In this document: positions 9,539 through 63,134 of the stretch, piece by piece | Position numbering within the stretch: position 1 is the stretch's first letter | Layout: every line of letters starts with the position of its first letter | NCBI GenBank assembly: GCA_023261545.1 | Contig: JAHFOS010000004.1 | Coordinates: 1 to 63,865, forward strand | Direction of reading: 5' to 3' | DNA length: 63,865 bases | From: a bacterium | GTDB taxonomy: Bacteria; Planctomycetota; JADGBV01 | The notes under the pieces: generated by a model | Told to the model about the DNA's origin: nothing | What the model saw: the letters and a program-made list of their open reading frames with translations, nothing else | Database searches by the model: none | Position numbers and translations under genes: made by a program

Positions 9539-9547
9539 GGCCGCGTC

Positions 9548-10319: not shown

Positions 10320-10405
10320 CGCGCTTCCGTTCGCGGTTTTGGCCGCGCGTTGAGCCTTGGTTGATCCACGTTGAAATCCACCGCGCCGGCCTATTCTGGA
10401 GGCTC

Positions 10406-14600: not shown

Positions 14601-14858
14601 GAGGTGGATCGTCCACGCCCGGAAATGGATTTCTCCACTTGGACACGGCGCCCCTCCGTGCGTGCTCCAGCGCCCCTGGTCCAGCCCAGCGCCCAGGGTC
14701 TCGTCGGTCTCTACGATGAGGAGCCTGGCGGATCAGCCCGAGGGCTCGCGTCACCCCTGGCGCTGGTTTTGCTGCCAGTGCTGGCGGCGGTACTCCACTT
14801 CTTGTTCGCCTATATCGCTTTGCGGCTGCGGCTCAAAAAAACACGGGCTGCGCTTTGA
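11697..14858 (+). CDS. ABCG/ABC-2-type half transporter (NBD then TMD) with a ~370-aa N-terminal domain of unknown function and a ~250-aa C-terminal extension ending in a TM helix
   Basis: Motifs: Walker A CGSSGCGKTT, signature SGGQRKR, Walker B LLLCDEPISELD, and an H-loop region VIAVIHD. Hydrophobic ABC-2-like helices follow. An in-frame TTG at 11682 is an alternative start. Confidence 0.8.
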   Translation: MRPHPDSGAGKKADVTDIPLALLMLRGNSPWRDDLRVARALLRQAGLMEWTEEEFLARAEEIADSARVDPIALAASALHRLEQQKEEDLLRLGSVLGLFLMDLLPPERSPLYLLKNCVEVLSRRAHGWQEGLGSAPLRDFAASLEMDRTASEHLRQVRGLPGLREVPWTRFLRARVYACAAEGFGPSPGEVETEIDRLFPGISADERDRLQAVLLEGVDRPWVPFLVLEELGVGFGEAERRELLGALLDLCRRRPHSQRWAFTRETLRAFGLTTEEAGALAFHAGAPENLLPASFNVIHLEEGTEIAVPAEPEDRGLSQARPEIALRVRRSSSQRFAVEIPGREPLMVGDGAELITTGSRLLFRPSAGLLCRHALENIFLAVKDLRVQVTRPILRGVSFSATSGQLIAVCGSSGCGKTTLLMALSGRTPSEGEIFFGHQRVITAAELAALTTFIPQEDILHRELTVREAVHCAGRIKLSLRPGPLEARVDEVLRELGLETASTVRIGGEAEKGASGGQRKRTSIAVSVVGGTKPLLLCDEPISELDPANGLEIMRLLRTIARRGHLVIAVIHDLFPAVFELFDRFLVLDGEGRLAYYGPPRGMLAFFSVGEAHLVFERLSAEQPGVWGQRFAAANEGRENDREIRRLAALTEQQRLDLPDPSPPRHRHGFRQFKALFGREFLCRRRDYGHLFACLLQPLALGLVLRWNFPGPTPAALFALVVSALWIGAVAGVREINGSWALLLRDIREGASPAVGFVSKLVSSLLFTLVQLVVLSALTVWSTLYHGPPFAFSAAMSFFVLLGLDIFGLSLGFLLSACLSPLASLAVLPLALIPLLLMGGLLHPYCETQGLKRALYRWNPVRAGFEAELLSADQLLFPTTRRAAARGDEDQRRQLWEVYLDRLAKYERKPRAAPRTLEADPEVLMRAALAGRLPTEDERARPSPPPEVEEPALLLHQPVLWRAGFRLLEVDRPRPEMDFSTWTRRPSVRAPAPLVQPSAQGLVGLYDEEPGGSARGLASPLALVLLPVLAAVLHFLFAYIALRLRLKKTRAAL

Positions 14859-15043
14859 GTCGTTTTTATTGGCGCGTTTTTTCAGCCATGTCATCATCCC
14901 ATCGTGGGGAGTATGAGTGGAATACGAAAAATCGAGTTTCGACCGGCCTGGCAACAGGGTGGACCACGGGCCGTGAAACCCATCCGCTTGCTGCTAACCG
15001 TGATTTTCGAGTTCCTCCGCTTCTCCAATCCGGAGCGCCAGCC

Positions 15044-19478: not shown

Positions 19479-19504
19479 TCTGTGTTATTCTGTGTTCTCT
19501 GTGG
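19479..19504 (+). repeat. Short tandem direct repeats TCTGTGTT-at-TCTGTGTT-ct-CTGTGG immediately upstream of the putA start. Possible operator or leader element.
   Basis: Read directly from the sequence 17-42 nt upstream of ATG 19521, inside an AT-rich divergent intergenic region. Confidence 0.3.
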
Positions 19505-19520
19505 ACAATTCCCCCGGAGC

Positions 19521-25400: not shown

Positions 25401-25900
25401 AGCTCGGGCTCACGCAGAACCAGAATCCCCTCCAGGGCAGCCATTTCATCGAACAGCTCACGGACCTGGTGGAGGAAGCGGTGCTGCGCGAGTTCGAGGC
25501 CCTGGACGCGCGCGGGGGCGCGCTCGGCGCCATGGAGACGCATTACCAGCGCAGCCGCATTCAGGAGGAGTCGCTGGCCTACGAGCAGAAGAAGATGAAC
25601 GGGGAACTGCCCATCGTGGGCGTCAATACTTTCCTCCCGGTCGGCGGAACCGGCGTCCCGCGCCACGTCGAACTCCGGCGCTCCTCCGCCGCGGAGAAAC
25701 GCGCGCAAATCGCCGAAGTGCGGCGCTTGCGCCAACTCTTCGCCCCCGAGCGCGCGGCGGCCCTGGCCCAGCTCACGCGCGCCGCGCGGGCGGGCGGAAA
25801 CGTGTTCGCCGAACTCATGGACGCCTGCCCTTACGGCACCCTCGGCGACCTCGCCGCCGCGCTGCACGGCGCCGGCGGCAGTTACCGGAGGAACATGTGA
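22487..25900 (+). CDS. icmF: Fused isobutyryl-CoA mutase: B12-binding domain, MeaB-like G-protein and mutase substrate-binding domain
   Basis: The N-terminus has the B12 motif FDGHDAAINV...GHNRS. The middle has the P-loop GPGGAGKSS and NKFD. The C-terminal ~600 aa is a methylmalonyl-CoA-mutase-like barrel. The ATGA overlaps the putA stop. Confidence 0.9.
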   Translation: MKRRTPPPVRVLTAAALFDGHDAAINVIRRVLQGCGAEVIHLGHNRSVEEIARAAVEEDVAAVAISSYQGGHMEFFRYLVATLRGLGAGDIKVFGGGGGVIVPTEARRLERLGVTRIYTPEDGTRLGLKGIVEHMLGICRQAQRRLPQRLPENLGIGNRLALGRLVSVLEAGPAPLRARLRKSLAQRLKEKRPAPVVAFTGPGGAGKSSLVDELLLRLLQLFPELRVGVVSVDPTLPGVGGALLGDRIRLNTAGNDRVFVRSLATRQRHVSLSIATRDALDLLRAAAFDLVLLETAGIGQADARARDLADLAVYVMTPEFGAPSQLEKIAMLGCADLIALNKFDRPGALDALREVRRAVQRARGRFADKAEDMPVYGTCAQRCADPGVNSFCNALLARVREVAPHPENFAAALLTEGAPDTDPLIPPLRRHHLAEVAAAVRGHKQRARAEAEIARRAGGLYAALVAAGDTPPELPEFYGTAALAGGAVPGLLELRRAYNKALEELGAEGARLIVAHAELATAYAGPQNTYTVRGREIKVENQAHTLSGLAIARVAVPALADWGARILYQRLENAPGRFPYTAGVYEYKREEEEPTRMFAGEGGPERTNARFHFICRGGKTARLSTAFDSVTLYGHDPDIRPDIYGKIGNSGVSVCSLDDMKRLYSGFDLAAPQTSVSMTINGPAPMLLAWFLTTAVDAAVERRIKVAGRLAHTRQRVAAWFRARAAVPPRYRGPLPEGHDGSGLLFLGVPARIIVEPQLYNEVRREVLSSVRGTVQADILKEDQAQNTCIFSTEFALRLMGDVQQWFLDHGVRNFYSVSISGYHIAEAGANPVSQLAFTLANAFTYAEVYRQRGMDFNRFAPNFSFFFSNGTDAEYAVLARVARRIWALAARALYGADERSAKLKCHIQTSGRSLHSQEMQFNDTRTTLQALYAIADNCNSLHTNAYDEAVTTPTEESVRRAIAIQLIVLRELGLTQNQNPLQGSHFIEQLTDLVEEAVLREFEALDARGGALGAMETHYQRSRIQEESLAYEQKKMNGELPIVGVNTFLPVGGTGVPRHVELRRSSAAEKRAQIAEVRRLRQLFAPERAAALAQLTRAARAGGNVFAELMDACPYGTLGDLAAALHGAGGSYRRNM

Positions 25901-41876: not shown

Positions 41877-42785
41877 TCAGGCGGCGCTGATTTTCGCCGA
41901 ATTGCGCAGACGGGTCAACGAGGAGGCCGCGCTCCAGGCGATAGCAAAAATAGCCAGCACGCCGGCGGCACCGGCAAGACTGGTGGCGAGCGCCGCGTTT
42001 TTGACGCCTGGGAACAGGTAGTCCGGAGCCAGCCCCGCGAAATGAGGGGCGGTTGACTTGTAAAAGGCGTAGGGCCGAGCTACCCATTCCAGGCCGTCCG
42101 GCAGGCGGCTGGAAAACGGAGCGATCAAGAGGCCGATAAGCAACGCGGAGAGGCCCACCAGCGCGGGCCTTAAGTTTTTCTCGCGCAGAGTTTCGTCGCG
42201 CCGATTCCAGACCCAATACACCACGACCGTCAACACCGCTTCGCCCAAACCGATCAGCGCGTGAACGCCAAGCATGGCCGGCAGCACTTGGGCCCATGTC
42301 ACGGTTCCAGCCATCGCCAGTTCAGCGCTGCAAGCCGCGGCGCCGATCAGCACGCAGCACCACGCGATACCGGCCAGATCCAGCAGCCTTCTGGCGGTGC
42401 ATCGTTCCCAGAGCAAGCCCCCCACGCCGGCGCCCAGGATGGCCATGTTCAGGAGGTTCGCCCCTAGCACGGACAGCCCGCCATCCGCAAAAATCAGACA
42501 CTGCACGGTGACCACGAGCGACATGGCCAGTACGCCCAACGGAGTCCCGAGCAGGGCCGAGGCCAGGACGCCACCCAAAAGATGCCCGGAAGTACCGCCG
42601 CTGATGGGAAAGTTCACCAGTTGGCCGGCGAAAATCAGAGCTGAAACCGCGCCGCACTTCGCGGCGGAGGGCAGGGGCTGACGAACTCGCAGGGCGGCAA
42701 CGGCCGCCGTGGCTACTCCCACGGCGCTGAGCATGGCCGTGACGGGGCAAACGGCGCCGTGGAGCATTTCATCCGGTAGGTGCAT
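41877..42785 (-). CDS. CbiM/NikM-type ECF-transporter metal-capture (S) component fused to a C-terminal PDGLE domain
   Basis: ATG 42785 gives the family-typical N-terminus MHLPDEML; in CbiM/NikM, Met1-His2 bind the metal. Motifs include NFPISGGTSGHLLGG, with LPDGLEWV near the C-terminus. The 512-aa track ORF extends upstream into the NrfD gene in another frame. Confidence 0.8.
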   Translation of the reverse strand: MHLPDEMLHGAVCPVTAMLSAVGVATAAVAALRVRQPLPSAAKCGAVSALIFAGQLVNFPISGGTSGHLLGGVLASALLGTPLGVLAMSLVVTVQCLIFADGGLSVLGANLLNMAILGAGVGGLLWERCTARRLLDLAGIAWCCVLIGAAACSAELAMAGTVTWAQVLPAMLGVHALIGLGEAVLTVVVYWVWNRRDETLREKNLRPALVGLSALLIGLLIAPFSSRLPDGLEWVARPYAFYKSTAPHFAGLAPDYLFPGVKNAALATSLAGAAGVLAIFAIAWSAASSLTRLRNSAKISAA

Positions 42786-42856
42786 GGAAAAAATCCTGAA
42801 TAAAGGCCAGAACGCGGAGAGATTCTGAGCGCATGGCGACAAGGGCAAGTACGCGC

Positions 42857-44392
42857 TCACTTCATCGGCCCTGGAACGATCTCGTAAATAGCCGCCGCTG
42901 AGAAACTCAGCATGATCCCGACGATGAAGATAACGGGGCTGAACGGTACCACCGGATCCAGAAAGGGCTGGGTGCCGTAGCGCGCCGAAAAAACGAGTCC
43001 GCCAACGGTCAACGCCAAACCCAACAACAGGGTCATCGCAAATATGCTTAGGCGCAGCGCGTGCCGGCGGTGGGATTCCACGGGTTCGACGGCTTGGGAA
43101 GCCGGTGTTTTCCGATCCAGCGGGATGATGGGAAATATTTTGACGAAGACTAGGAACATGAGCACACCGAACGCCGTCAGTGCTGCCGTAACGGAGATTT
43201 CCGTCACGCTGATGCGATAGGTTCCTTCGGGGTAAGGAAGCAGCAGACCATGAGTTTGGGAAGGAACGACGATGAGCAGGCGTTTGAGCAAGGCCGCTAC
43301 CTGAACCGTTGCTCCACAGAACATGCTCAAGGCGATGGACTGGAAACCTGTGATGCCCATGACGAGCAGGATGAACATGGGAACGACCAGGGTGATCACG
43401 ACGGTCCAGAACCATCCCGCGTAATGTCCCGACACGATTTCATGAGCCACGTGGGTTTCCAGGGTGGACGAGGCGTAGTTGGCGGTCAGTTCTTCCACCA
43501 CCATGAAATAGAGGTAAACCAGGATAAGGACCCACAGCATGTTGCCGAGCCAGCGGATGGCTTCCGGGCGGATCTGATTTTCCAAGTGCAGGACTTTCCG
43601 GATGAGGCCGGCCACCACGATGAGGGCTCCGATGCCGGAAACCCCCGCCATGACGACGAACCCCGGCGCCTGCAACGCGCTGAACCAACCGGGCCGACCG
43701 CCTTGGATGCCGAAAATGAATCCCAGCGTGGAGTGCGCCGTCACCAGGACCGGCAGGATGAAAATGGACAACCAGAAGCTGGTGCGCTGATGCCGCTCCG
43801 ACTCATCCCGTGTGCCCGTGTAGCCCGCGGCCCAGAGGCGATAGAACCATTTCAAGGAACCGCGTGCGTGATCGCGCATCCAGCCGGCGTCGGAACGACC
43901 CGCCAGGAAAAAGAACACCAGGCTTGAAAAGAAGTAGCCCGCAACCACCAGCGTGAACGTCCCGAAAAAAGGCGAATGGGGGCGGGCGACGCGGGGTAAG
44001 CTGAAAAGGCCATGGAAGGGCCGCCCAAGATCGGCGAGGACGACGAGCGCTCCGAGCGGCAGCGTCACGAGGGTCAGGAGTTCAGCGATGCGTGTCAACG
44101 GTCGCAGATCGGCGATAGCGAGCAACCGCACGAGGGCCGCGACCGCGATACCGGCGAAGCTGACGCCGATGAAGTAGACATCGAAGGCGATATAAAGGCC
44201 CCAAGCGGCACCGCCCTGGCCGATCGTGCGCATCCCGGTAACGATCAAACCGTGCAGGATCTGCTGTAGGAACCCATAGATCCCCCATGAAAGGACGGCC
44301 AGAAGGATGATCCCCGCGATCCAGAAACCTGGACCGCATTTCCCCACGCCTTGGGGCAAGGGAGACGCCGGCTCGCTGGTTGCGTCAGTCAT
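42857..44392 (-). CDS. NrfD/PsrC-family quinone-interacting integral membrane subunit, large (ActC/QrcD-like, 511 aa)
   Basis: At least 10 hydrophobic helices by eye. Its length is far above PsrC/NrfD (~300 aa) and close to ACIII ActC/ActF. It lies directly downstream of the FeS subunit (15-nt gap). Confidence 0.85.
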   Translation of the reverse strand: MTDATSEPASPLPQGVGKCGPGFWIAGIILLAVLSWGIYGFLQQILHGLIVTGMRTIGQGGAAWGLYIAFDVYFIGVSFAGIAVAALVRLLAIADLRPLTRIAELLTLVTLPLGALVVLADLGRPFHGLFSLPRVARPHSPFFGTFTLVVAGYFFSSLVFFFLAGRSDAGWMRDHARGSLKWFYRLWAAGYTGTRDESERHQRTSFWLSIFILPVLVTAHSTLGFIFGIQGGRPGWFSALQAPGFVVMAGVSGIGALIVVAGLIRKVLHLENQIRPEAIRWLGNMLWVLILVYLYFMVVEELTANYASSTLETHVAHEIVSGHYAGWFWTVVITLVVPMFILLVMGITGFQSIALSMFCGATVQVAALLKRLLIVVPSQTHGLLLPYPEGTYRISVTEISVTAALTAFGVLMFLVFVKIFPIIPLDRKTPASQAVEPVESHRRHALRLSIFAMTLLLGLALTVGGLVFSARYGTQPFLDPVVPFSPVIFIVGIMLSFSAAAIYEIVPGPMK

Positions 44393-44407: not shown

Positions 44408-45262
44408 TCATCCTTCGTCAATGATCTGGTTGCGGCTCAGGTAATAGACGCTGGGCTCGGTCCCCAGGTGGCTCAGCAGGGTGAAGGCCCTGGAGCTTTT
44501 GGATAGTTTCGCGGCGAGGCTTTGCGGATCGTTCAGATCGCCGAAGACGATCGCCTTGGGCGGGCAGGATTGGGCGCAGGCCGGCAGGTAGCGGATATCC
44601 TCGTCTCCGGGGGGTTGGCCCGTCACTTTCGCTTTTTCGTTCATGGAGCGGATACGGTGATAACAAAACGTGCACTTTTCCACGACCCCCTTGGGACGGG
44701 TGGCGACGTCCGGGTTTAGGTAATTCTTGTAACTGTCCGGCCATTGCGGAGGGGCCCAGTTGAAGGAGCGCCTGGAATAAGGGCAGGCGGTCATGCAATA
44801 ACGGCAACCGATGCAGCGGTCCCATATCTGAACGGTGAGGCCCTCCTCGTTTTTGTAGGTGGCGCCCACGGGGCAGACCTTGACGCAGGGAGCGTTGCCA
44901 CAGTGCATACAGGGCATAGGCAGCATGTCCGCGCGCCTGTGGACGGTGCTGTCGCCCGGGCCGGGCAACAGGGACATCCATTCGATCTCGGTGCCTTGAT
45001 GGGTTTCGTCGTTTCCGGTCATGGGAACATTGTTTTCCACTTTGCACGCCACGGAGCAGGCGCCGCATCCCGTACACAAGTCGAGGTCAATCACCATTCC
45101 CCAGTGCCGCGGCCTTTTTATCGCGGCGAGCGCGGGTGGAACGGGGGCTGTCACGGCGGGAAAGGCTTTCGCGGCATAACCCAGAACCGTCCCCACCGCG
45201 AGAGCCAGGGCCTTGGCGAAACGCTTTCGAGTCCAGAGGGAATTTTCCACGCCGGAGGTCAT
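44408..45262 (-). CDS. 4x[4Fe-4S] ferredoxin-type subunit (PsrB/HybA/ActB2/QrcC-like) with an N-terminal Tat-like/anchor segment
   Basis: Cys clusters: CTGCGACSVAC, CMHCGNAPCVKVCP, CIGCRYCMTACP, CTFC...CAQSCP. The N-terminus is WTRKRFAKALALAV. ATGA overlap with the upstream stop. Confidence 0.9.
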   Translation of the reverse strand: MTSGVENSLWTRKRFAKALALAVGTVLGYAAKAFPAVTAPVPPALAAIKRPRHWGMVIDLDLCTGCGACSVACKVENNVPMTGNDETHQGTEIEWMSLLPGPGDSTVHRRADMLPMPCMHCGNAPCVKVCPVGATYKNEEGLTVQIWDRCIGCRYCMTACPYSRRSFNWAPPQWPDSYKNYLNPDVATRPKGVVEKCTFCYHRIRSMNEKAKVTGQPPGDEDIRYLPACAQSCPPKAIVFGDLNDPQSLAAKLSKSSRAFTLLSHLGTEPSVYYLSRNQIIDEG

Positions 45263-47661
45263 GACGCTATCCCGTTGATCCGGACCCGGGTTTCCATGAT
45301 CGGCAAGATCCCCGTGGCGCGGGAGTCTGGTGCCACCAGATCCAAGACGTTTCCGCCCCATCCTTTGGCGAACCTCCCGTAGGCCGTGTGTCCGCCACCC
45401 TGGGCCACGACGATTTCACCCGGAGAAATTTTTTCGCTGAGGATCAGGAAAACACGGATCTTCCCGTGCGGGCTCTCCAGTTCCACGGGCCGTGGACCGG
45501 CGACGCCTTGGTTCAGATCCGCAGCGGGATGGATCCAGGCCAGGGTTTCCCAGCGGGGCAGACCGGGTTCCCAGGCCATATCTTGCAACAGGGGAAGGTT
45601 GGCCCCGCTGCCCTCGGCATAGGTATTCCTGCGATAGGGATGTAGGAGCAGGGGAAACTTATCGGTGGCGCCCTGAGCACTTTCGGCCTCGTGTCTTGGC
45701 AGACACCATGCGTCGGGGGAAGCGGCGAACCCCCACCCGTCGAGCACGGCTCGCGGACTCAGGTTCCGCGTCTTCCCACGCAGATCCAGCAGTTCCTTGA
45801 GCCGCAGGGAGTAGAATTCGAACTTCCCGCTGGGAGTGTGGAACCGCGGGGATTCCCCGGCAGCAGGCGCGTCGCTCCAATGACCGGTGGCGAACAGTTT
45901 CTTCAAGAACTTTTTTCCGCTTTTTTCCTGTATCGAACCCTTTCCGGATTCGTGCAATCCCAGCGCGCATTCGCTCAAAGCGCTCTTGAAGTCCTGCCAG
46001 GGAAAATTTTTGGCGATCTCTCCGCCCCACTGGCGCGCCAGTTGGATGATGACGTCGCCCGTTGCCCGCGTATCGTACAAGGGCTCCACGACCGGTTGGC
46101 GGATACCGAATACGGGGAAACCCAGGCTGGGGGATGGCGCGGAGTCCTCCCAGCGCTCGAGATAAGTGTGGTCTGGAAGCACGAGGTCCGCCGCGAACGT
46201 GGCGGTTTCATCCGCGAAGGGGCTGAAACTCACGATGAAAGGCACCTTTTGCAGGGCCTCGCGCCAGGTGGCGGGATGGGCCCGCGAATACAAGGGGTTG
46301 CTGTAATAAAGCAACAGGGTGTCGAGTGCGTCCTGCTTCCTTTCAAGCAGCAGGCCGGGGAGGCGATCCAGTTCATTCTTGAAGAAATAATCCACGCTAT
46401 TCCCGCCGAGTGCAACCGGGTTTTGCAATTTCTCCCTGGCGATTCCGTCCAACTGGATCTCCGGCCAGGAATGGACGGGCGCGGGCACCTGTCGCAGGAT
46501 CCCTCCCGGCCTGCCCATGGACCCCAGGAGCGCGTTGAGCGCGTGGACGGCAAGTGCCGTCGGCAGGCCGTTTGAGCTGAATTGCTCCTGGGTGTTCATC
46601 AGGACGATGGCGGGCCGCCGCTGCGCGATCTCCTTGGCGATGCGCCACAGCAGCGGCGCTTCGATCCCGCAGAGTTCGCTCACGAATCCCGGCGTGTAGT
46701 GTTTCAGGATATCCGCGAACCCCGCGTGCGCGACGCCAAGTTCGTCCTTCCAGGCGTTAAATCCAAAGCCGTATTTCTCGACGAATTCCACGTCGTGCCA
46801 ACGTTGATCCACGATGATGCCGGCCAGACCCAGCGCGAAGGCCCCGTAGGTTCCAGGGCTGATCATGATGCTTTCGTCGGAGTGGGACATGGAATGGGGA
46901 AAAGACGACGCCACGTGGACGATCTTGGCGCGGTGCTGCTGGACGGTCGAGGTCCTTGAGAAGTGCGCCATTTGGCAAGACGTGTTGAAGACCTCGGTTC
47001 CCAGGCTCAGGATATACTGGGTGCGAGGCCAATCGTAGGCGGGAAGCTCCGTGGCTCCTTGCATATAGTACACGGCGTTCGCCAAAGCGCCGTTCCGAGA
47101 CGCAAATCCGTCGAAGAAATAGGGGCTGCCGTACACCTGGGCAAAACGCCGCAACAATTCCCGCATCAGACCCCGCTCCCTCCCGCAAAGGATAGCCAAC
47201 TGGTCGGAACGCCCTTCCTCCCTCAGAGCGGCGAGGCGACGGCTCAAAAGTTCCATGGCGGAGTCCCAGCTCACGGGCTCCAATCTACCGGTGAACCTCG
47301 GGCCCTTGCGCAACAACGGCTGCTGAAAGCGGTCGGGATCGTAGAGCGCCTGAAGGCCGGCGAGTCCCCGCGGGCCGATCCCCCCGCGATTGACCGGGCA
47401 CGAGGGATCCCCTTCGATCTTGACAGCTCTGCCCTCCACGACGCGCACGCGGATCCCACAGCCGGCGGAGCATTGGGCGCAGGCGCTGGAAACGATCCGC
47501 TCCTGTCCCCTGACCCATCCTTGCGCCCCAGGGACATCAGGTTTGGGAATGGCAAAGGGATCGCCCGCGTCCCCACAACCGGACAGCCACGTTCCCGCCG
47601 CGGTCAAGCCGCATCCCTTCAAAAAGGTTTTGCGGGAAATGATGCGGTTCGCTGTCGTCAT
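45259..47661 (-). CDS. Molybdopterin-oxidoreductase-family large subunit (PsrA/ActB1/QrcB-like) with an RK-type Tat signal and lipobox-like LSGC
   Basis: The N-terminus is MTTANRIISRKTFLKGCGLTAAGTWLSGCG, followed by CAQCSAGCGIRV (CxxCxxxC). The remaining ~750 aa are of molybdopterin oxidoreductase architecture. ATG 47661 forms an ATGA overlap with the pentahaem gene stop; ATG 47670 and TTG 47679 are alternative starts. Confidence 0.85.
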   Translation of the reverse strand: MTTANRIISRKTFLKGCGLTAAGTWLSGCGDAGDPFAIPKPDVPGAQGWVRGQERIVSSACAQCSAGCGIRVRVVEGRAVKIEGDPSCPVNRGGIGPRGLAGLQALYDPDRFQQPLLRKGPRFTGRLEPVSWDSAMELLSRRLAALREEGRSDQLAILCGRERGLMRELLRRFAQVYGSPYFFDGFASRNGALANAVYYMQGATELPAYDWPRTQYILSLGTEVFNTSCQMAHFSRTSTVQQHRAKIVHVASSFPHSMSHSDESIMISPGTYGAFALGLAGIIVDQRWHDVEFVEKYGFGFNAWKDELGVAHAGFADILKHYTPGFVSELCGIEAPLLWRIAKEIAQRRPAIVLMNTQEQFSSNGLPTALAVHALNALLGSMGRPGGILRQVPAPVHSWPEIQLDGIAREKLQNPVALGGNSVDYFFKNELDRLPGLLLERKQDALDTLLLYYSNPLYSRAHPATWREALQKVPFIVSFSPFADETATFAADLVLPDHTYLERWEDSAPSPSLGFPVFGIRQPVVEPLYDTRATGDVIIQLARQWGGEIAKNFPWQDFKSALSECALGLHESGKGSIQEKSGKKFLKKLFATGHWSDAPAAGESPRFHTPSGKFEFYSLRLKELLDLRGKTRNLSPRAVLDGWGFAASPDAWCLPRHEAESAQGATDKFPLLLHPYRRNTYAEGSGANLPLLQDMAWEPGLPRWETLAWIHPAADLNQGVAGPRPVELESPHGKIRVFLILSEKISPGEIVVAQGGGHTAYGRFAKGWGGNVLDLVAPDSRATGILPIMETRVRINGIAS

Positions 47662-48236
47662 TTGTGACATGTCAGACAATCGTTTTTGGCGTGTCTCGCT
47701 TCATGACAGGCCATGCAGCGGGACATGGTCAATGCTTTGATATCGGAATTCATGGCCGCCTGTTTCTCCTTGCGCATGTCGCGGTGACAATCCCAACAGT
47801 CCATTTTTCCGTCCACCACGTGAGCCCGATGGGAGAAGTACACGTGGCCCGGAAGACGATTCACGGTGATCCACGGGATTTCCATGCCTTTTTTCGCGTA
47901 CTCCCGCACGGCGGCTTCGTCGGGATGCTGACCCTGCGGTTCCGAATGGCAGTCGCGACAATCCTTGAGCTTGGGAAGCGTGGCGTAAGGGCCCGCGGTC
48001 GCGAAACGATGGCAATCCGCGCACTCCATCTTTTCGGCTCTGATGTGGGCCTCGTGATCAAAAGCCAGAGGCTGTCGCACGGCTTCGGAAGGAGCGGTTT
48101 TCAGATGGAAAACCTTCGCGAGGATTCCCCCGTTCGACGGGTTTTCACCAGCAAGACCTTGGTAAACCAGTCCCATTCCCAGAAGCGACAGGCCGGCTGG
48201 CAGCAGCCAGTTAATCAAATATTTACGCATGCCCAC
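47658..48236 (-). CDS. Membrane-anchored pentahaem c-type cytochrome (ACIII ActA-like / NrfB-c3 family)
   Basis: An N-terminal TM/signal anchor is followed by five CXXCH motifs: CADCH, CRDCH, CWDCH, CMACH, CLTCH. The segment PGHVYFSHRAHV is also present. Confidence 0.85.
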   Translation of the reverse strand: MGMRKYLINWLLPAGLSLLGMGLVYQGLAGENPSNGGILAKVFHLKTAPSEAVRQPLAFDHEAHIRAEKMECADCHRFATAGPYATLPKLKDCRDCHSEPQGQHPDEAAVREYAKKGMEIPWITVNRLPGHVYFSHRAHVVDGKMDCWDCHRDMRKEKQAAMNSDIKALTMSRCMACHEARHAKNDCLTCHK

Positions 48237-48321: not shown

Positions 48322-48729
48322 CTAGGGAGCCTTCCCGACCGGCGGATCTTCCCGGCGCTGTGCCAACCATTCGCTCAAGGCTTCGAGTTCCTCCGAGCTT
48401 CCGGCAAAAAGTTTTCTGTGCTTCTTTTTTCCCATTTTGCTCTCCTTGGCTATTTTTTTAGTAAGGAACTTCTGGATCCATGTCGCGTCGTGATCGCGAC
48501 CCACGCCGGAGAGGTCGGGAGGCTCCACCTTGTCGTTTTCCTCTTCCTCAGCCTCATCCCCTTCCTTCTCTTGCACCGCTTCCTCTTTCTTTCCCAGACC
48601 CAAGGCCTTGATGGTGTGGCATTGCTGGCACTTGGAAGCCTCGAAGATCCTGCGGCCCGTCTCCTCTCCGCCGCTAGGCAGAGCAAAGACGGCCATGCCA
48701 CCGGCGATGGCGATGAGGTGCATTTTCAT
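48322..48729 (-). CDS. Secreted monohaem class-I cytochrome c with an acidic insertion
   Basis: Signal peptide MKMHLIAIAGGMAVFALP, a single CQQCH, and an acidic stretch EKEGDEAEEEEND. PPDLSGVG is typical of class I cytochromes. Confidence 0.8.
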   Translation of the reverse strand: MKMHLIAIAGGMAVFALPSGGEETGRRIFEASKCQQCHTIKALGLGKKEEAVQEKEGDEAEEEENDKVEPPDLSGVGRDHDATWIQKFLTKKIAKESKMGKKKHRKLFAGSSEELEALSEWLAQRREDPPVGKAP

Positions 48730-48739: not shown

Positions 48740-49969
48740 TCAGAACATGACGCGGATGTTGAACTGGTAGTCGTACTTGGATGAGTCGTCGAGGTTAAAG
48801 GTGAGGTGCAGGCTGGGCCGCACGTTCTCCCTGGGGAAGAAGGTCAGCGAAGGCGTGAGCTTCTCCGTCTCGATGCTCGTGTCGTCCGAGTTCACGATGT
48901 CGTACTGCAGGGCCGGGTAGATCTTGGGCAGGCCATCCTTGTCGGTGACCATATAGGCCGTGACGAGGGAGATGCCGTCGAAGTCGTTCGCCGTTGGCGT
49001 GGCGCCCAGTTTCCAGTTGTCGTCCTTCCCCTGGGCGTAGCCGGCCTGGAGGTCAAAGGCGCCGCGGCGCAAGTTGAACTCCACGCTGTTGCGCTGGAAG
49101 TCGTTGTAGGTGGGAAAGGTGGCGATATCCTTGGTGTCCGTGCCCTGGTAGTGCCAGATCGAGACGTTGGAGCCCACCCATTTGGAGCCGCGCGCCTCGG
49201 TGACCTCAAAGCGCAGGCCGCCCCAGTAATGCAGTTCATCGTTGGGATCCGCGGGGGTGCTGCCCGGTCCCGCCCCCAGCCACCAGACCACGGGTCCCTG
49301 GTAGCCGTAATACTGGATTCCCGGCCGCGCCGAGCTCAGATCCACGCTGTCCTCGCCCTTGCCGTTGGCCGATTTCACGGCGTAAACCTCGGCTTTGACG
49401 GGGGGAAGGATGCGCAGGCGGTTGGAATAGCCCCCGTAGTCGCGCGGGCTGATGTTGCCAACATGGAAGTTGACGGCGCTGGAACCCCCGAGGTTGTGGA
49501 AGCCGAGGTGATACCAGTTGAAAAGGGACTTGCCGCTCTCCTGCTCCATCTCGATGAAGATCGAGATGTTTTTGGCGATGGACCCCGCGAAGAAGAGTTG
49601 CAGCCAGTCGGGATTGCCCATGGTGAGCTGGTCGGTTTTCTTCCCCTTCACCGTCAGGCTGTCGCCCTTCAGTCGCAGCGGTGTCACGCTCAGGCGCACG
49701 CCGAAAAAGTCGTCCACGCTGCTGAGGAAGGTCTTGGCATTGATGGCCTTCTTCTTGAGCGTATCGCCGTCGGGCTTCTCGTTGTCCGGGTCCTGGTAGC
49801 CGTTCCTGAGAAAACGCTCGCCATAATAGTTGAGGCGCGGAAAGGCGCTGTGGCAGGTATAGCACGAGGTCTTGTACTTGCGCGCCCACGCCGAGGTGGC
49901 GAAGACGGCGGAGGGAGAGTACGCGAGCGCCGCGAAAAGGGCTATCCGGAAGATGATTTTGCCGTTCAT
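48740..49969 (-). CDS. Candidate fused outer-membrane porin-cytochrome (Cyc2 / Cyt572-like): signal peptide, single N-terminal CXXCH, beta-barrel body
   Basis: Signal peptide is MNGKIIFRIALFAALAYSPSAVFA. The only two Cys residues in the 409-aa protein form CYTCH (nt 49850-49864). The rest is Y/G/N/D/S-rich with an alternating beta-strand pattern and ends ...NIRVMF; a C-terminal Phe is an OMP hallmark. Confidence that this is a CDS is high. The Cyc2-like assignment is inferred from architecture, not from an alignment. Confidence 0.65.
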   Translation of the reverse strand: MNGKIIFRIALFAALAYSPSAVFATSAWARKYKTSCYTCHSAFPRLNYYGERFLRNGYQDPDNEKPDGDTLKKKAINAKTFLSSVDDFFGVRLSVTPLRLKGDSLTVKGKKTDQLTMGNPDWLQLFFAGSIAKNISIFIEMEQESGKSLFNWYHLGFHNLGGSSAVNFHVGNISPRDYGGYSNRLRILPPVKAEVYAVKSANGKGEDSVDLSSARPGIQYYGYQGPVVWWLGAGPGSTPADPNDELHYWGGLRFEVTEARGSKWVGSNVSIWHYQGTDTKDIATFPTYNDFQRNSVEFNLRRGAFDLQAGYAQGKDDNWKLGATPTANDFDGISLVTAYMVTDKDGLPKIYPALQYDIVNSDDTSIETEKLTPSLTFFPRENVRPSLHLTFNLDDSSKYDYQFNIRVMF

Positions 49970-50151
49970 AGAATCACCAAATTGTTGTCAGTTGGAACCA
50001 CCGGGAGCAAAAGCAATGCTCGTGCCAAAAAACGGCGGACGCGCTTAGCCTCCGCTAGACCTCATTTTTTTCGGGTCGTTGCCCCCGTGAAATCGTATTG
50101 ATTTGTCAGGGTCCAAGGCTGGGTGTAAAGAAATTTGCGCAGCATCCGCGC

Positions 50152-50178
50152 CCAAAAACAGCGCGGGCTCCGGCGCGT
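50152..50178 (-). terminator. Possible intrinsic terminator downstream of korB (imperfect GC hairpin followed by a T-run on the minus strand)
   Basis: The plus strand reads AAAAAC-AGCGCGGGCTCCGGCGCG. On the minus strand the GC-rich imperfect hairpin is followed by TGTTTTTGG. The stem contains a bulge. Confidence 0.4.
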
Positions 50179-50194
50179 GCGGTTTGTTTTTTTG

Positions 50195-51775
50195 TCAGCC
50201 ATCCCGGATCTCCCGCGCCGTCGCCTTTTCGTAGATGAACAAGAGCAGCCCCTTGATCGAGATGAGCCGGATGTTTCCGCGTCCGTCGCGTACCAGCAAG
50301 TGGCGGTAGCCTCCCGAGGCCAGGGTATGGAAGGCGAAGGCCACGCTGGAATGGGAGGGCAGCACCTCGGGGGCGGAAGTCATGATGGCGCGCACGCGGG
50401 TGGCGGGCGCGCGCGCGAGCAGGGGCAAGGCCTTCAGGAAAATGTCGCGCTCGGTAAGGATGCCGACGGTTCGCCCCTGCTCCACCACCGGCAGTGATCC
50501 GATGCCGCGCGCGCGCAAGACCGCGAGGGCGGATCGGACCTCGTCCTCAGGGGATACCGTGGCCGGGTGCTCGGAGGAACCGTAGCGATCGAGGATGTTC
50601 TCCAGCGACTCGGAAAAAGCGGCGGAATAGGGGTCGTTGGCGGGCAGGTTTTCGGCGCGCACCTGCTCGGCCATGACGCTTTGCTCTTCGGCGACGGGCG
50701 CTTCGGCCTCCCGCGGCTCGACGAGCCGCGGCTCCGCGGCCTCGCGCACCACCCAACTGCCTTGCGCCAGCAGCGCGCGCAACTCCTCCCGTACCTCGGG
50801 GGCAAAGGCCGGGCCGTGATGTGCCGTTGCCTGGGCCTTTTCCGCCAGCCGCAGTTCGAAAGGCGTGCCGCGATCCCAGCGCCTGAAAACTCCCACGGGC
50901 ACCGGCAGTCCGGGCTGTCCCATTTGGGCGAGCATGTTGGCGTAGGCCGGCTCCGCGCGGGTGGCGTCGTGCACCAGGATTTGGCTGGAATCCACCCCGT
51001 CCCGGCCCAAGCGCACGGCCTCGAGTTTGAAGCCCCGCAGGACGATGCCGCGATCGCGATCCTTGCCAAACAGCAGCGGCTCTCCGTGCTCAAGCATCAG
51101 CAGGCGCTCCTCGCGGTGTTCCCGATCCGTGATTTCCTCGTAGCAGCCGTCATTGAAGGTCACGCAGTTCTGGAGGACCTCGACGAAGGCTGAGCCGCGG
51201 TGATCGGCGGCGGCCTTGAGCACCTGGATCATCTGGCGCGGACTGTTGTCAACCGTGCGCGCGACGAAAGTGCACTCGGCGGCGATGGCGATGCACAGCG
51301 GATTCACCGGGGATTCCAGCGATCCGCCGGGCGAGGTCTTGCTCACCTGGCCCAGCGGCGAGGTGGGGCTGTACTGACCCTTGGTGAGGCCGTAGATGCG
51401 GTTGTTGAACAGGATGATCTTGAGCCCCACGTTGCGGCGCAGCGCGTGCAAAAGGTGATTGCCGCCGATGCTGAGTCCGTCGCCATCCCCGGTGATGACC
51501 CAGACGGAGAGCTCGGGATTGGCCACCTTGACCCCTGTGGCCACCGTCGGCGCGCGCCCGTGGATGGTGTGAAATCCGTAAGTGTTGATGTAATAGGGCA
51601 GGCGGCTCGAACAGCCAATGCCGCTCACCACCGCAAAGCGTTCGCGTGGCAGCCCGGTTTCGGCGAAGACTTTTTGCAGCGAGTTGAGCACGGCGTAATC
51701 TCCGCAGCCCGGGCACCAGCGCACCTCATTGGTGGTGACGAAGTCCCGCTGCGTGAGGTTCGGAAAATGGCTCAT
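50195..51775 (-). CDS. korB: 2-oxoacid:ferredoxin oxidoreductase beta (TPP-binding) subunit with a fused C-terminal CBS-domain pair
   Basis: The N-terminal ~300 aa have WCPGCGDYAVL, GIGCSSR and ITGDGDGLSIGGNH (TPP motif). Residues ~400-520 have two CBS-like repeats (SLPVVEQGRTVGILTERDI and HLLVRDGRGNIRLISIKGLL). ATGA overlap with the korA stop. Confidence 0.9.
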   Translation of the reverse strand: MSHFPNLTQRDFVTTNEVRWCPGCGDYAVLNSLQKVFAETGLPRERFAVVSGIGCSSRLPYYINTYGFHTIHGRAPTVATGVKVANPELSVWVITGDGDGLSIGGNHLLHALRRNVGLKIILFNNRIYGLTKGQYSPTSPLGQVSKTSPGGSLESPVNPLCIAIAAECTFVARTVDNSPRQMIQVLKAAADHRGSAFVEVLQNCVTFNDGCYEEITDREHREERLLMLEHGEPLLFGKDRDRGIVLRGFKLEAVRLGRDGVDSSQILVHDATRAEPAYANMLAQMGQPGLPVPVGVFRRWDRGTPFELRLAEKAQATAHHGPAFAPEVREELRALLAQGSWVVREAAEPRLVEPREAEAPVAEEQSVMAEQVRAENLPANDPYSAAFSESLENILDRYGSSEHPATVSPEDEVRSALAVLRARGIGSLPVVEQGRTVGILTERDIFLKALPLLARAPATRVRAIMTSAPEVLPSHSSVAFAFHTLASGGYRHLLVRDGRGNIRLISIKGLLLFIYEKATAREIRDG

Positions 51776-53622: not shown

Positions 53623-54129
53623 TCACGCTCCTTCCGACCGCCTGGAGACCGCGCGTTTCTCTGGCGGCAGATTCATGAGCGCCGCGGGGAAATGCTCCGC
53701 TAGAAAAAAGGTGATGGATTTCACGGACAGAAGGCCGTGGACGGCGCGATCATCACCCAGGACCGGCAGATAGGTGAGCTGACGGCTCACGAACAGGCGC
53801 AGGGCCTCGGAAAGGGGAGCCTCGGCCTGAATGCTCGGAGCCTCCTCGTCCATCACCTCGCCGACGCTGAGGCGGGACGCGGTCTCATCGCTATCCACGC
53901 TGGCGAGGATGGCCCGTTCGGTGAGCAGCCCCTCCATGCGGCGATCCGCGCCCACCACGACGGCGCAGCCCTTGCTCAAATAACGCATGCGCTTAAGGCA
54001 TAAGAAAAGATTCTCTCTGGGTTCGGAGGTGAGGGGATGACGGATGCACAGGTAGCCGACGCGTTCCGACCACAGATCCCAGGGCTTGGAGGAAGCTTCC
54101 GGAGAGACGGAGGGCGCGGAAATATTCAT
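53623..54129 (-). CDS. Stand-alone CBS-domain-pair protein
   Basis: Two CBS-like repeats: AVVVGADRRMEGLLTERAIL, and YLPVLGDDRAVHGLLSVKSI. Its stop abuts the korA start (TGAATG). ATG 54129 was chosen; the track ORF opens at 54249. Confidence 0.7.
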   Translation of the reverse strand: MNISAPSVSPEASSKPWDLWSERVGYLCIRHPLTSEPRENLFLCLKRMRYLSKGCAVVVGADRRMEGLLTERAILASVDSDETASRLSVGEVMDEEAPSIQAEAPLSEALRLFVSRQLTYLPVLGDDRAVHGLLSVKSITFFLAEHFPAALMNLPPEKRAVSRRSEGA

Positions 54130-54458
54130 GGCGGGGCGGTGGATGAACCGCGATCGAAGAGTGAAAAAAATACCAGCAAATAGCGGGCTATGACACGAAG
54201 TCCCAAGAGGCGCGGCCTGAGCCAGGTCCTTAAAAAGCGGATTCGGCACAAGGGGATGCCAAATAGTGGGAGTTCACAGAGATGAATTCTTGAGCGTAAG
54301 AACCGCGACAATCCTTCGTCAATTTTTTTGTCTTAAGTTCCTAGTTTCCAGCTCTGCCTAGAGCAGATCCCCAACTAAATCAATGCCTTGCGAGCGAAGC
54401 TCCTCAGCGCGGTGATTGCTCCCGACAGATTGGGCCCTAGTCCAAAAGGAGGCCTGCC

Positions 54459-55314: not shown

Positions 55315-56814
55315 CTAAAACATGAACTGGAACAGCATGCGAAGCTCGACCACGGTTTTTCGCGCGGTGCTGTTGCCGGGGGTGGCCAACAGGGAGTTTT
55401 GCGTCGTCGAAGTCGGGTCGGGAAAGGCATAGCCACCCACCGGCTGACTGCCGAGGGGGGTCGCGTTGCCCATCTTGTCATACCAAATGGGGCAGTTCAG
55501 ATAGATGGGCAGGTCGGTGACCAGCTTCAGGTTGTGCTCCTTGAAGTGGTAGGTGAAGGAGGGCGTAATCTCGTGAATGGAGTCTCCCAACTGGTTGTTG
55601 ACGACCTGTTTGACGGGAGTCCCGGCGGTAGCGCCCGTGCCCGTGGCGGAGTTCGAGAGGAAACCGGACTTCGAGTCCATGTTGAGCAGCGCGTAGCGCA
55701 AGCCCAGCTCGAAGGGCTGGAATTGATAATCGCCCTGGACGCGAAAATTGGAGAGCTGGACGCTTCCGAAGCGGTTGCGGTAGCGCCCCCAATTCACTTC
55801 GACCTCGCCTTCCAACGCCCGGCCCGGCGCGAGGAAGCGGCGCACCACGGCGTCGCCGCCGACAAACCAGAGGCTGCCGCGCTGCATGGTTTTCGTACCC
55901 GCGATGGTGCCGAGCCCCGGTCCACCGCCTTGGTTGATGTAAGGGTTGAAACCCGTGTCAATCAGCAGGTTCTTGTCAATGGTGCGCGATTGCAGGACGG
56001 AAGAGTGGCCGATGAGCGTATCCTTCATGTAGAGCGCGTTGAAATAGGCGGCCTTGGTCGTCCTTTTGAGGTTCAGGTCCGTCTGCACGACGTGGTAGAT
56101 GTCCTCGTCCACGCCATCGTTGTAGCCGAAGCGACCCACGATTTCCGGCACGCCGAGGCGCTCCGGCAGGTAGCGCTGCGGGATATCGCGGCCACCGGCT
56201 GAGAAAACGCCGATGGTGCCGTGCCAAAGGCCTCCGGTATCGAGCAGCGCCAAGCCGTAGTCGCGGGTCTGGTAGGAACCGAGGTTGGCAATGGATCGAT
56301 CTCCAAAATTCATGAAACCGCGGTCCGTGAGGCCCTCGCGGCTGTAGGGCACGCGAAACTGTCCGATTTTAAACCAGGCGTTGTTTCCGACCGGAACATC
56401 CGCCACGAAGTCGAGCAGCGTCAGGCCCGTGTTCGACCCTTGAGTGTCCTCGCCGCCGAAGGCAAGCTGGGTATCGTACTTCACGGTGTCGTAGTTGCCT
56501 TTGAAGCCGAGACGCGATTGCTTCATGAACAGGTAAAGGCGGTTATCATCGCGGGTGGGGTCGTCAACGCTCTCGATGACGCCGATCATCTGGCCCCGGC
56601 CGTACACCTCCAGCGAGGCGTTCTCGTTTTTCACGACCTCGATGCTGAAGCCGTGCGCGTGAAGCCCCAACAGGACCGCCACGATGGTCAGAGCCGCTTT
56701 CGCTGCCCTCCCGCGAATCCCGGCGGCGGGCGCGGGAGCACAGGTTGGCGGCGTCAGCCTGGCCGCAACGGGCGCGGCCGGATGGAGGCTTTTTTCAGAC
56801 GAAGTGCGGGTCAT
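55315..56814 (-). CDS. Outer-membrane beta-barrel porin (OprO/OprP-like)
   Basis: An N-terminal hydrophobic signal region (ALTIVAVLLGLHAHG) is followed by a Y/G/N/D-rich alternating pattern. The C-terminus is ...LRMLFQFMF, with a terminal Phe. Confidence 0.75.
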   Translation of the reverse strand: MTRTSSEKSLHPAAPVAARLTPPTCAPAPAAGIRGRAAKAALTIVAVLLGLHAHGFSIEVVKNENASLEVYGRGQMIGVIESVDDPTRDDNRLYLFMKQSRLGFKGNYDTVKYDTQLAFGGEDTQGSNTGLTLLDFVADVPVGNNAWFKIGQFRVPYSREGLTDRGFMNFGDRSIANLGSYQTRDYGLALLDTGGLWHGTIGVFSAGGRDIPQRYLPERLGVPEIVGRFGYNDGVDEDIYHVVQTDLNLKRTTKAAYFNALYMKDTLIGHSSVLQSRTIDKNLLIDTGFNPYINQGGGPGLGTIAGTKTMQRGSLWFVGGDAVVRRFLAPGRALEGEVEVNWGRYRNRFGSVQLSNFRVQGDYQFQPFELGLRYALLNMDSKSGFLSNSATGTGATAGTPVKQVVNNQLGDSIHEITPSFTYHFKEHNLKLVTDLPIYLNCPIWYDKMGNATPLGSQPVGGYAFPDPTSTTQNSLLATPGNSTARKTVVELRMLFQFMF

Positions 56815-61925: not shown

Positions 61926-63134
61926 TTGCCAATTAGCACAACCTTCGATCAATTCATCCGCGCCAGCGTGGCCCGCAGGGAGGAACTCGACGCCTTCCTC
62001 TCCCCCGACCAGCCCACCTGGGCGAAGTTCGATCCCGAACTCGGCTACGTCTTGGGCCATTCCATGCCCCGGGACGGGCTGGATGGCTGCCTCACCATCT
62101 CCAATGCCGGCGCGGATGGAGCGCGCCGATCTGTCGTTTACGCAGATCGACCCTGCCGTATCCATACCTTCGGGGACAGTTTCACGCTCTGCCACCAGGT
62201 GAGCGACCACGAGACTTGGCAGGAGGTCCTTGCCGCGCACTTCGGCGAACCCGTCCGCAACTACGGCATGGGGGGATACGGCGCCTATCAGGCGTACCGG
62301 CGGCTGCGCAAAGTCGAGAGCCTGGGGCCGGGAGCGGAGTACCTCATCCTCTACATCTGGGGTGGCGAAGATCATTACCGCAGCGCGCTGCGTTGCCGCA
62401 GCGCGCTGACGCACGTCTGGCGCGGACGCATGGGCACCCAGATGTTCCACGGGAATTTCTGGCCCAACCTGGAGATGGATCTGGGCTCCGGCACCCTCGT
62501 CGAGCGCGACAACCCGTTGGCGACGCCGGAAGCGCTCTACCACATGACCGACCCGGAGTTCATGGTGGAGGCCCTCAGGGACGACCTGATGATGCAACTG
62601 AGCGCTTACCTGAAGGGGCACATCCGGGAGGTGGACTTGAAACTCCTGGGCCAGTTGGCGGAGATCCTGCGGCTCCCCCGCGCGCCTGGCGCCGAGGACG
62701 AGAGAGCCTGGGTGAGCGCCCTGCGCGACGCTTACGCTTTTGCGACCAGCCGCGAGGTCATCGATATGGCCCTGGAATTCGCGGCGCGCCACCAGCGCAA
62801 ACTGCTCATCGCGCTTTTCTGTCCCCACATCACGCGCCAGCTCATCACCGCGGGCCGGCGCGACGACCAGCCCGTGGTGGATCACCTGCGCGCGCGCGGG
62901 GCCCGCGTCTTCGACATGAACCTCGCGCACGCCGAAGATTTCAAAAATTTCAACCTCGACGTGGACGCGTATCTGCGCCGCTTCCTCCTGGGACATTACC
63001 ATCCCGCGGGCAATCACTTCTTCGCCTTCGCCATCCGCAAGACCCTGGTGGACTGGCTCGAACCCAAGCCGCCGACCTACCGCGGCGGGGACGAGCGGCT
63101 CATTGATTTCCGCGGCTATCTCGAACAAGCCTGA
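61926..63134 (+). CDS. SGNH/GDSL-like hydrolase family protein (tentative)
   Basis: Block I-like IHTFGDSFT and block II-like NYGMGGYG. The TTG start at 61926 is uncertain. The plus-strand translation is protein-like, whereas the fully overlapping minus-strand ORF has antisense-type composition. Confidence 0.55.
   Translation: MPISTTFDQFIRASVARREELDAFLSPDQPTWAKFDPELGYVLGHSMPRDGLDGCLTISNAGADGARRSVVYADRPCRIHTFGDSFTLCHQVSDHETWQEVLAAHFGEPVRNYGMGGYGAYQAYRRLRKVESLGPGAEYLILYIWGGEDHYRSALRCRSALTHVWRGRMGTQMFHGNFWPNLEMDLGSGTLVERDNPLATPEALYHMTDPEFMVEALRDDLMMQLSAYLKGHIREVDLKLLGQLAEILRLPRAPGAEDERAWVSALRDAYAFATSREVIDMALEFAARHQRKLLIALFCPHITRQLITAGRRDDQPVVDHLRARGARVFDMNLAHAEDFKNFNLDVDAYLRRFLLGHYHPAGNHFFAFAIRKTLVDWLEPKPPTYRGGDERLIDFRGYLEQA

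Follow-up and report, generated by a model that had tools for sequence, protein, structure and literature searches.

The window analysed here is a 63,865-nucleotide stretch of DNA from a planctomycetotal bacterium (positions 1 to 63,865 of contig JAHFOS010000004.1, assembly GCA_023261545.1; GTDB lineage Planctomycetota, JADGBV01). On its minus strand, at 48740..49969, lies an open reading frame (ORF) with an ATG start that encodes a protein of 409 amino acids (aa) and is the first gene of an operon. Taking together the ORF, the alignment of its family, an AlphaFold2 (AF2) model and homology to Cyc2, we describe it as a Cyc2-type gene for a fused monohaem cytochrome-porin.

The protein contains exactly two cysteines, residues 36 and 39, and both fall within the sequence CYTCH (residues 36-40; 49850..49864, minus strand), a c-type haem-binding motif that is conserved in homologues. 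The original prediction for this gene had singled out this use of the only two cysteines and had placed the motif 12 residues past the likely cleavage site of a signal peptide, and both statements agree with our results. Residues 1-24 (MNGKIIFRIALFAALAYSPSAVFA; 49898..49969, minus strand) make up a Sec-type signal by inspection, with a basic n-region, a hydrophobic core and a VFA cleavage site. An alignment of 33 family sequences shows a nearly invariant Ala24 just before a conserved mature N-terminus, and the AF2 model has a helix at residues 2-17 and low confidence at residues 18-25. Cys36 is then residue 12 of the predicted mature protein. The probability that two randomly placed Cys and a His would produce a CXXCH by chance is ∼9e-5, given the seven His and 385 residues of the mature protein, and falls to ∼4e-6 if the motif is restricted to the first 20 mature residues, which supports the earlier view that a chance motif is unlikely. 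The composition is likewise as first described, rich in Gly, Ser, Asp, Asn and Tyr (8.6, 8.1, 7.3, 5.9 and 5.4%, respectively), as is the C-terminus, ...NIRVMF, with its aromatic end; among homologues 113 of 120 end in Phe, mostly as TMF.

Searches of Pfam, NCBIfam and PDB sequences with the 409-residue protein gave no useful match, and in particular none to a known non-haem porin family. A search of 5.8 billion proteins returned 171 homologues with 37-51% identity, none of which has a Pfam domain and all named members of which are called ‘hypothetical’. The metagenome-assembled genomes (MAGs) behind the named homologues are labelled Nitrospirae, Nitrospinae, Marinimicrobia, Bacteroidetes, Aminicenantes, Eisenbacteria, Elusimicrobia, Lentisphaerae and Deltaproteobacteria. 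Conservation of the haem motif, on which the original prediction depended, is nearly complete, as CXXCH is kept in 139 of the 140 family members with an intact N-terminus. The exception, P0211 (400 aa), lacks both the His of CXXCH and the PRL motif owing to an internal deletion (...CNVC-QRNGYQ...), which is either natural, giving a haem-less variant, or an error of assembly. In the 33-sequence alignment C36, C39, H40, P44 and R45 are invariant, whereas mean column identity over the remainder of the protein is 42%, and the N-terminal consensus reads A-TSQWSRKY-xxx-CxTCH-TxF-PRL-NxYGERFMRNGYQxPD. Further along the chain R92, E140, R184, R293, R301 and D357 are invariant as well. The upstream part of the consensus, S/A/T-x-W-[A/S]-R-K-Y, is near-universal in what we refer to as the W-type clade.

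Using the family alignment as input, AF2 produced a model with a mean pLDDT of 89.5 and a pTM of 0.84, to which DSSP assigns 16 long strands, the first E89-107 and the last E399-408. Together these form a predicted 16-strand beta-barrel (residues 89-408, then Phe409; 48746..49705, minus strand), in line with the outer-membrane barrel originally proposed. The N-terminal segment of the model is short and helical, with helices at residues 27-32 and 48-55 on either side of the haem motif. Foldseek matches in the PDB are exclusively 16-strand porins (OmpU, PorB, OmpF/OmpC, Omp32 and OprP; E 1e-10 to 1e-12), and among the matches listed OprP (2O4V, E 3e-10) has the highest query-normalised TM-score, 0.59. 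The 16-strand fold is thus common to this protein, OprP/OprO and the general porins OmpF, OmpU and PorB (TM-scores of 0.5-0.6 normalised to the query), but sequence identity to these porins is just 9-14% and, unlike the 409-residue protein, they have neither a haem motif nor an N-terminal cytochrome peptide. OprP/OprO is also the structural match of Cyc2PV-1 according to Keffer et al. 2021 (PMC8406198).

An identity as an MtrB-type porin was considered and rejected because of the 16 strands and the fused haem motif. In MtrB-type systems a decahaem cytochrome is threaded through a 26-strand barrel. We found no MtrA-like decahaem gene in the operon by Pfam and NCBIfam scans and haem-motif counts. 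MtrAB, MtoAB and PioAB together with CymA follow a similar logic, in that an outer-membrane barrel, c-type haem, a periplasmic carrier and an inner-membrane quinone-linked cytochrome are combined, but their decahaem cytochrome is a separate protein, whereas the window protein would carry one haem fused to a 16-strand barrel.

Relationship to Cyc2

Cyc2 is defined by a signal peptide, one CXXCH, an upstream AXPXFAR[Q/K][T/Y] motif, a downstream PXL motif, a length of at least 365 aa and a 16-strand porin (PMC8406198), and membership was judged here by the criteria of McAllister 2020, Keffer 2021 and FeGenie, with a length threshold of 365-375 aa. The window protein has the signal peptide, a single N-terminal CXXCH, the length (409 aa), a predicted 16-strand OprP-like barrel, homology to Cyc2 and the PXL motif, the latter as P-R-L (residues 44-46; 49832..49840, minus strand) 4 residues past CXXCH, with Leu46 nearly as constant as the two invariant residues before it. 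The sequence T-S-A-W-A-R-K-Y (residues 25-32; 49874..49897, minus strand), separated from CXXCH by a 3-residue gap, is a variant of the Cyc2 motif (A)XPXFAR[Q/K][T/Y].

Two results speak against membership. Read together with the preceding Ala, as A-T-S-A-W-A-R-K-Y, the upstream motif has Ser for Pro and Trp for Phe and so falls outside the Cyc2 definition; because of these two replacements, the published PXFAR[Q/K][T/Y] filter would discard the window protein. In addition, a hidden Markov model (HMM) that we built from cluster-1 Cyc2 sequences gives the window protein just 36 bits, over its first ∼150 residues. As to the motif, A, A, R, K and Y agree with the Cyc2 pattern and the spacing is identical, and the deviation is conservative; intermediates such as ATAAFARKY and AIPAWSRKY exist. 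The N-terminus of the window protein, AWARKYKTSCYTCHSAFPRLNYYGERFLRNGY, is nearly superimposable on the real Cyc2 N-terminus PFARKYKTSCYTCHIAFPKLNAFGRAFKRNGY with the same spacing, and P0189, PFARKYKTSCYTCH, is a real Cyc2 N-terminus with an equal distance between motif and CXXCH. A synthetic Cyc2-motif query retrieved short N-terminal fragments only, apparently since the search favours targets of similar length; these fragments served for the comparison of motifs and as seeds of the genome scan.

An exhaustive search of 1.84 billion representatives with the family-profile HMM gave 3580 matches at E<=1e-3, 1085 at E<=1e-10 and 80 at E<=1e-30. There are ∼45 representatives (at 50% identity) above 300 bits; where their N-terminus is intact, almost all have the W-type or a closely related non-Pro motif. 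The tier from 250 to 100 bits contains full-length alignments to proteins with the canonical A-x-P-x-F-A-R-K-Y (E 1e-23 to 1e-50), and both intermediate motifs named above occur within it. For comparison with accepted Cyc2 we scanned 185,579 species genomes for FARQTG[MLQ]AC, which yielded at least 588 confirmed loci, the best 80 of which, many from Gallionella/Sideroxydans, were kept. Accepted Cyc2 was represented by 73 cluster-1 sequences from Gallionellaceae genomes, including Ca. Ferrigenium straubiae KS, a cluster-1 Cyc2 in Fig. S7 of Keffer et al. (PMC8406198). The cluster-1 HMM matches all 117 of 117 family members and the family HMM all 73 of 73 cluster-1 sequences, with alignments that mainly span the first ∼150 residues. 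Aligning the two profiles with hhalign gave a probability of 98.3% and an E-value of 1.4e-14 over 349 columns in local mode, and 99.4% and 5e-21 over 384 columns in global mode. Alignments of 349-384 columns indicate that the homology to Cyc2 extends over the barrel.

In a rough neighbour-joining tree the W-type clade is one branch nested among sequences with the canonical motif, with cluster 1 outside. On sequence grounds the window protein is therefore placed in the Cyc2 superfamily as a member of a distinct clade. The original prediction of a monohaem cytochrome-porin resembling Cyc2 and Cyt572 is thus supported by homology, the predicted barrel, CXXCH and PXL, the exact PXFAR[Q/K][T/Y] motif being the exception. 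What the protein has in common with Cyc2 (Cyc2PV-1 of Mariprofundus ferrooxydans and the proteins of Gallionellaceae and Acidithiobacillus ferrooxidans) and with Leptospirillum Cyt572 is a signal peptide, a single N-terminal CXXCH with PXL 4 residues downstream and a basic-aromatic motif 3 residues upstream, a size of ∼400-480 aa, a 16-strand OprP-like barrel, a C-terminal aromatic residue and full-length profile-profile homology.

Three differences set the clade apart. Its upstream motif is S/A-x-W-[A/S]-R-K-Y against P-x-F-A-R-[Q/K]-[T/Y] in Cyc2. Its hosts are Nitrospirota, Nitrospinota, Marinimicrobia, Bacteroidota-like, Aminicenantes, Eisenbacteria, Elusimicrobia and Lentisphaerae MAGs and not the classical iron oxidisers; work with FeGenie had already brought to light cyc2 homologues in unusual phyla, among them Aminicenantes. 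Finally, a dedicated small cytochrome c usually follows the porin gene of the clade, whereas this is rare at cluster-1 cyc2 loci, where a downstream ORF with CXXCH is found in 11 of 64 Gallionellaceae loci and is, in the majority of the examples shown, a second cyc2 in tandem. Such tandem paralogues (∼430-480 aa, single CXXCH, within 140-650 nt) are frequent among cluster-1 cyc2 genes, as in the Gallionellaceae loci L012, L013, L018, L020, L021 and L023.

The operon and its relatives

The operon runs on the minus strand throughout, its first genes being separated by gaps of 10 nt and 85 nt, after which comes an overlap. Upstream of the porin gene is an intergenic region of 225 nt (49970..50194, minus strand), and because a terminator-like hairpin follows korB at 50151-50137, the operon probably starts here. 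We found no sigma-70 consensus promoter upstream of the operon, a consensus that may not be that of the host. The second gene (48322..48729, minus strand), 10 nt past the porin gene, encodes a monohaem cytochrome c of 135 aa with the haem motif CQQCH and a match to Pfam Cytochrom_C; we regard it as a putative dedicated partner of the porin.

The remaining genes encode a predicted quinone-linked module. The first product, of 192 aa (47658..48236, minus strand), is a membrane-anchored pentahaem cytochrome resembling ActA and QrcA, with five CXXCH and an N-terminal hydrophobic helix; it scores against NCBIfam QrcA with an E-value of 6e-33, under the family cutoff, and its best PDB matches are ActA chains of alternative complex III (ACIII; 8k9e_A, 6f0k_A, 6lod_A and 6btm_A). 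It is followed by a subunit of 806 aa (45259..47679, minus strand), or of 800 aa in an alternative gene call that starts ∼18 nt further downstream, with matches to Pfam Molybdopterin and Molybdop_Fe4S4, which is a molybdopterin-oxidoreductase-like protein of the QrcB/ActB1 kind exported by the twin-arginine (TAT) pathway. Its scores against NCBIfam QrcB, PhsA and ArrA are all under the cutoffs. By sequence it is closest to ArrA and PsrA, with ArrA 6cz7 the best PDB match (E 8.5e-62), and the Mo-coordinating Cys of ArrA (‘HSSVC’) aligns to an Arg in this subunit (‘GFASRNG’). The replacement of Cys by Arg at the Mo ligand suggests a cofactor-less subunit of the QrcB/ActB1 type, and the subunit probably lacks the Mo ligand. 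An active arsenate, thiosulfate or polysulfide reductase, periplasmic and fed by cytochromes, was considered and rejected on this replacement and because the other subunits match ACIII best.

The next gene (44408..45361, minus strand; 317 aa as the longest ORF, 284 aa in an alternative call) encodes an iron-sulfur subunit resembling QrcC and ActB2, assigned from NCBIfam and PDB matches: the NCBIfam QrcC match has an E-value of 1e-84, under the curated cutoff, and the best PDB matches are to the C-terminal iron-sulfur part of ACIII ActB (6f0k_B, E 4e-60). The last gene of the module (42857..44392, minus strand) encodes an integral membrane quinone-interacting subunit of the NrfD family (Pfam NrfD; 511 aa, ActC/QrcD-like) that matches NCBIfam DsrP and HybB, both weakly, and in the PDB best resembles the ACIII ActC chains 6lod_C and 6btm_C. 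The types of subunit that make up Qrc (QrcABCD) and recur in ACIII (ActABCDEF), namely a pentahaem cytochrome, a Mo-pterin-like protein without the Mo-ligand Cys, a 4Fe-4S protein and an NrfD-type protein, are all present in the window module. As in Qrc its B subunit is split into two genes, and unlike ACIII it has no ActD, ActE or ActF genes. As the NCBIfam Qrc scores are under their cutoffs, we call the module Qrc/ACIII-like and assign it to neither family; its composition is that of a four-subunit Qrc-type architecture made, as far as similarity indicates, from ACIII-like parts. We did not find a Cyc2-type gene in one operon with a Qrc/ACIII-like complex in the Cyc2 literature, of which our coverage is incomplete. 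Just downstream of the cytochrome operon, within ORF 41877-43415 (minus strand), is a CbiM-like cobalt transporter gene.

The surroundings of the porin gene were surveyed in the 36 non-redundant family loci whose downstream sequence was long enough. In 19 of the 36, from several phyla, the porin gene is directly followed by an orthologue of the small cytochrome, recognisable by a shared PPDLSxVG...KH.K.F.G pattern. The genes that follow vary among loci and encode a NapC/NirT-like tetrahaem protein together with a membrane protein of 63-78 aa, an octahaem cytochrome or a 13-haem cytochrome. In one locus, L006, the small cytochrome is upstream, and the porin is followed by genes for a Rieske protein and cytochrome b, a multihaem cytochrome and a NapC/NirT-like protein. 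The hydrophobic protein of 63-78 aa always stands after the NapC/NirT-like gene (L004 12282-12515, L006 14923-15159, L007 12302-12523 and L009 12418-12609) and has no Pfam match; it looks like a conserved fourth component of the NapC/NirT-like cassette. A further arrangement, characterised by haem-motif counts, occurs in L098 (8263-11260), where the porin-cytochrome is accompanied by a different monohaem cytochrome c, a NapC/NirT-like tetrahaem protein, a tetrahaem protein of 149 aa and a pentahaem protein of 457 aa.

Elsewhere in the window, korB (50195-51775, minus strand) encodes a 526-aa beta subunit of a 2-oxoacid:ferredoxin oxidoreductase whose C-terminal extension (aa 386-502) matches the CBS-pair region of IMP dehydrogenase, a fusion that is unusual and regulatory-looking; a separate CBS-domain protein (53623-54249, minus strand) follows the alpha subunit of the oxidoreductase. 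The PutA gene at 19482-22490 (plus strand) has best homologues of <=58% identity among 5.8 billion sequences, from Tectimicrobiota, Planctomycetota, Sumerlaeia and Myxococcota, a sign that the lineage of the host is poorly sampled, and adjoins a gene (22487-25900, plus strand) for an IcmF-like fusion of 1137 aa that combines B12-binding, MeaB-like GTPase and methylmalonyl-CoA mutase parts. Six ORFs of 402-543 aa with high GC at the third codon position have no Pfam match at E<=1e-5 (435-1961 and 55315-56814 on the minus strand; 2688-4094, 9968-11254, 14855-16486 and 61926-63134 on the plus strand).

Proposed electron flow and meaning for the family

We consider it likely that the window protein is a Cyc2-family electron conduit across the outer membrane, for which we infer haem attachment, outer-membrane location, partner interactions, substrate and direction of flow. 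In such a model the protein would be exported by Sec to the outer membrane, where residues 25-60 would bear one covalent c-type haem with His40 as its proximal ligand, and the haem peptide, joined to the 16-strand barrel, would offer a one-step path for electrons across the membrane. The periplasmic 135-aa cytochrome c would shuttle electrons between the porin haem and the pentahaem cytochrome anchored in the inner membrane, which would belong to the four-subunit Qrc/ACIII-type complex linked to the quinone pool.

If the protein is such a conduit, we lean slightly, by analogy, towards Fe(II) oxidation with inward flow, in which Fe(II) outside the cell would give up electrons at the cell surface, and these would travel on to the quinone pool and/or an aa3-type oxidase. 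We favour the inward direction because all three Cyc2 proteins tested biochemically, one from each of three clusters, have Fe(II) oxidase activity (including PMC8406198). In published models for iron oxidation, electrons from Cyc2 go by way of a periplasmic cytochrome to an oxidase, or enter complex III or ACIII in reverse transport. The window contains an aa3-type haem-copper oxidase cluster at 5576-9865 (plus strand), with genes for SCO1/SenC (5576-6364), COX1 (7114-8934), COX3 (8873-9538) and COX4 (9548-9865); in the position expected for subunit II, ORF 6339-7109 has a match to a CarboxypepD_reg-like domain only.

A number of observations count against the conduit or against its inward direction. 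A second invariant His was not found in the family, and the sole invariant Met, M408, is a candidate for the distal haem ligand. The sources of the clade include no known iron oxidiser, signs of lithoautotrophy are absent from the window, and the Aminicenantes-type copies stand alone without cytochrome neighbours. The identity of the putative partners, too, fits outward flow. The closest solved relatives of the module, to which the pentahaem, iron-sulfur and NrfD subunits are most similar, are ACIII, a quinol:cytochrome c oxidoreductase that normally oxidises quinol. In sister loci the porin is paired with tetrahaem proteins of the NapC/NirT family, which are usually quinol dehydrogenases, as in CymA. 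The authors of FeGenie, moreover, name Geobacter and Rhodoferax among the iron reducers that have cyc2 homologues.

These last points raise the possibility, which we regard as real if somewhat unlikely, that the same architecture works in the outward direction. In this case the ACIII/Qrc-like complex (or, in sister loci, a NapC/NirT-like protein) would take electrons from quinol, the small cytochrome c would carry them to the porin haem, and from there they would reach an acceptor outside the cell, for instance Fe(III), Mn(IV), humic substances or a partner cell. The octahaem or 13-haem cytochromes of further loci and the organotrophic look of the window organism (PutA, methylmalonyl-CoA mutase and glycogen synthase) are also in its favour. 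It is opposed by the uniform Fe(II) oxidase activity of the three tested Cyc2 proteins and by the four-subunit architecture with a split B subunit, which is that of Qrc. Qrc reduces menaquinone with electrons from a periplasmic cytochrome. Likewise the CymA of the Sideroxydans mto cluster sits in a proposed pathway of Fe(II) oxidation, and we know of no case in which a single haem within a barrel has been shown to reduce a solid acceptor.

We think it improbable that the protein serves mainly for diffusion or uptake, as a porin or channel whose cytochrome neighbours are functionally unrelated to it, with a haem that has a non-respiratory task such as redox sensing, gating, peroxide detoxification or iron or haem acquisition. 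The resemblance of the barrel to general and anion-selective porins and the isolated Aminicenantes-type loci would suit such a role, and the electron-transfer function of the clade is a predicted one, but the homology to Cyc2 is strong and full-length, the small cytochrome c is encoded at a spacing of 10 nt and recurs in 19 of 36 loci from several phyla, and multihaem or quinone-linked proteins repeatedly follow. That the CXXCH is accidental or non-functional in an ordinary outer-membrane protein without haem is very improbable indeed, given a chance probability of ∼1e-4, the invariance of C36, C39 and H40 against an average column identity of 42% elsewhere and flanking motifs that are those of Cyc2.

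Returning to the Cyc2-family conduit, three things take this gene beyond a routine case: the lack of the diagnostic motif and of any annotation, the coupling in operons to quinone-level modules and a cytochrome c of its own, and the completeness of the chain in the window. For inferring microbial iron oxidation from genomes and metagenomes the chief genetic marker is Cyc2, and here is a clade of ∼45 representatives (50% identity, >300 bits) that neither Pfam nor NCBIfam covers with a model, whose members go by the name ‘hypothetical’ and which the published motif filter would reject. Recognising it would extend candidate extracellular electron transfer to phyla that are rarely counted as iron cyclers. 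A single operon of the window contains the genes for all steps between outer membrane and quinone pool, a compact set for heterologous reconstitution that could test the direction of flow in Cyc2-type conduits, a question that is open in the literature for distant homologues.

More tentatively, and with some doubt on our part, the clade together with its small cytochrome c and an interchangeable quinone module could represent a distinct, self-contained and operon-encoded conduit through the cell envelope that is spread across non-proteobacterial phyla and would be missed by motif-filtered surveys. The interchangeable modules may be the NapC/NirT-like protein with the 63-78 aa membrane protein, the Rieske/cytochrome b pair and, in the window, the Qrc/ACIII-like complex. 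If this is true, an ability to exchange electrons with iron or other redox-active solids outside the cell would have gone unrecognised in groups such as Nitrospinota, Nitrospirota, Marinimicrobia, Bacteroidota-like bacteria and Eisenbacteria.

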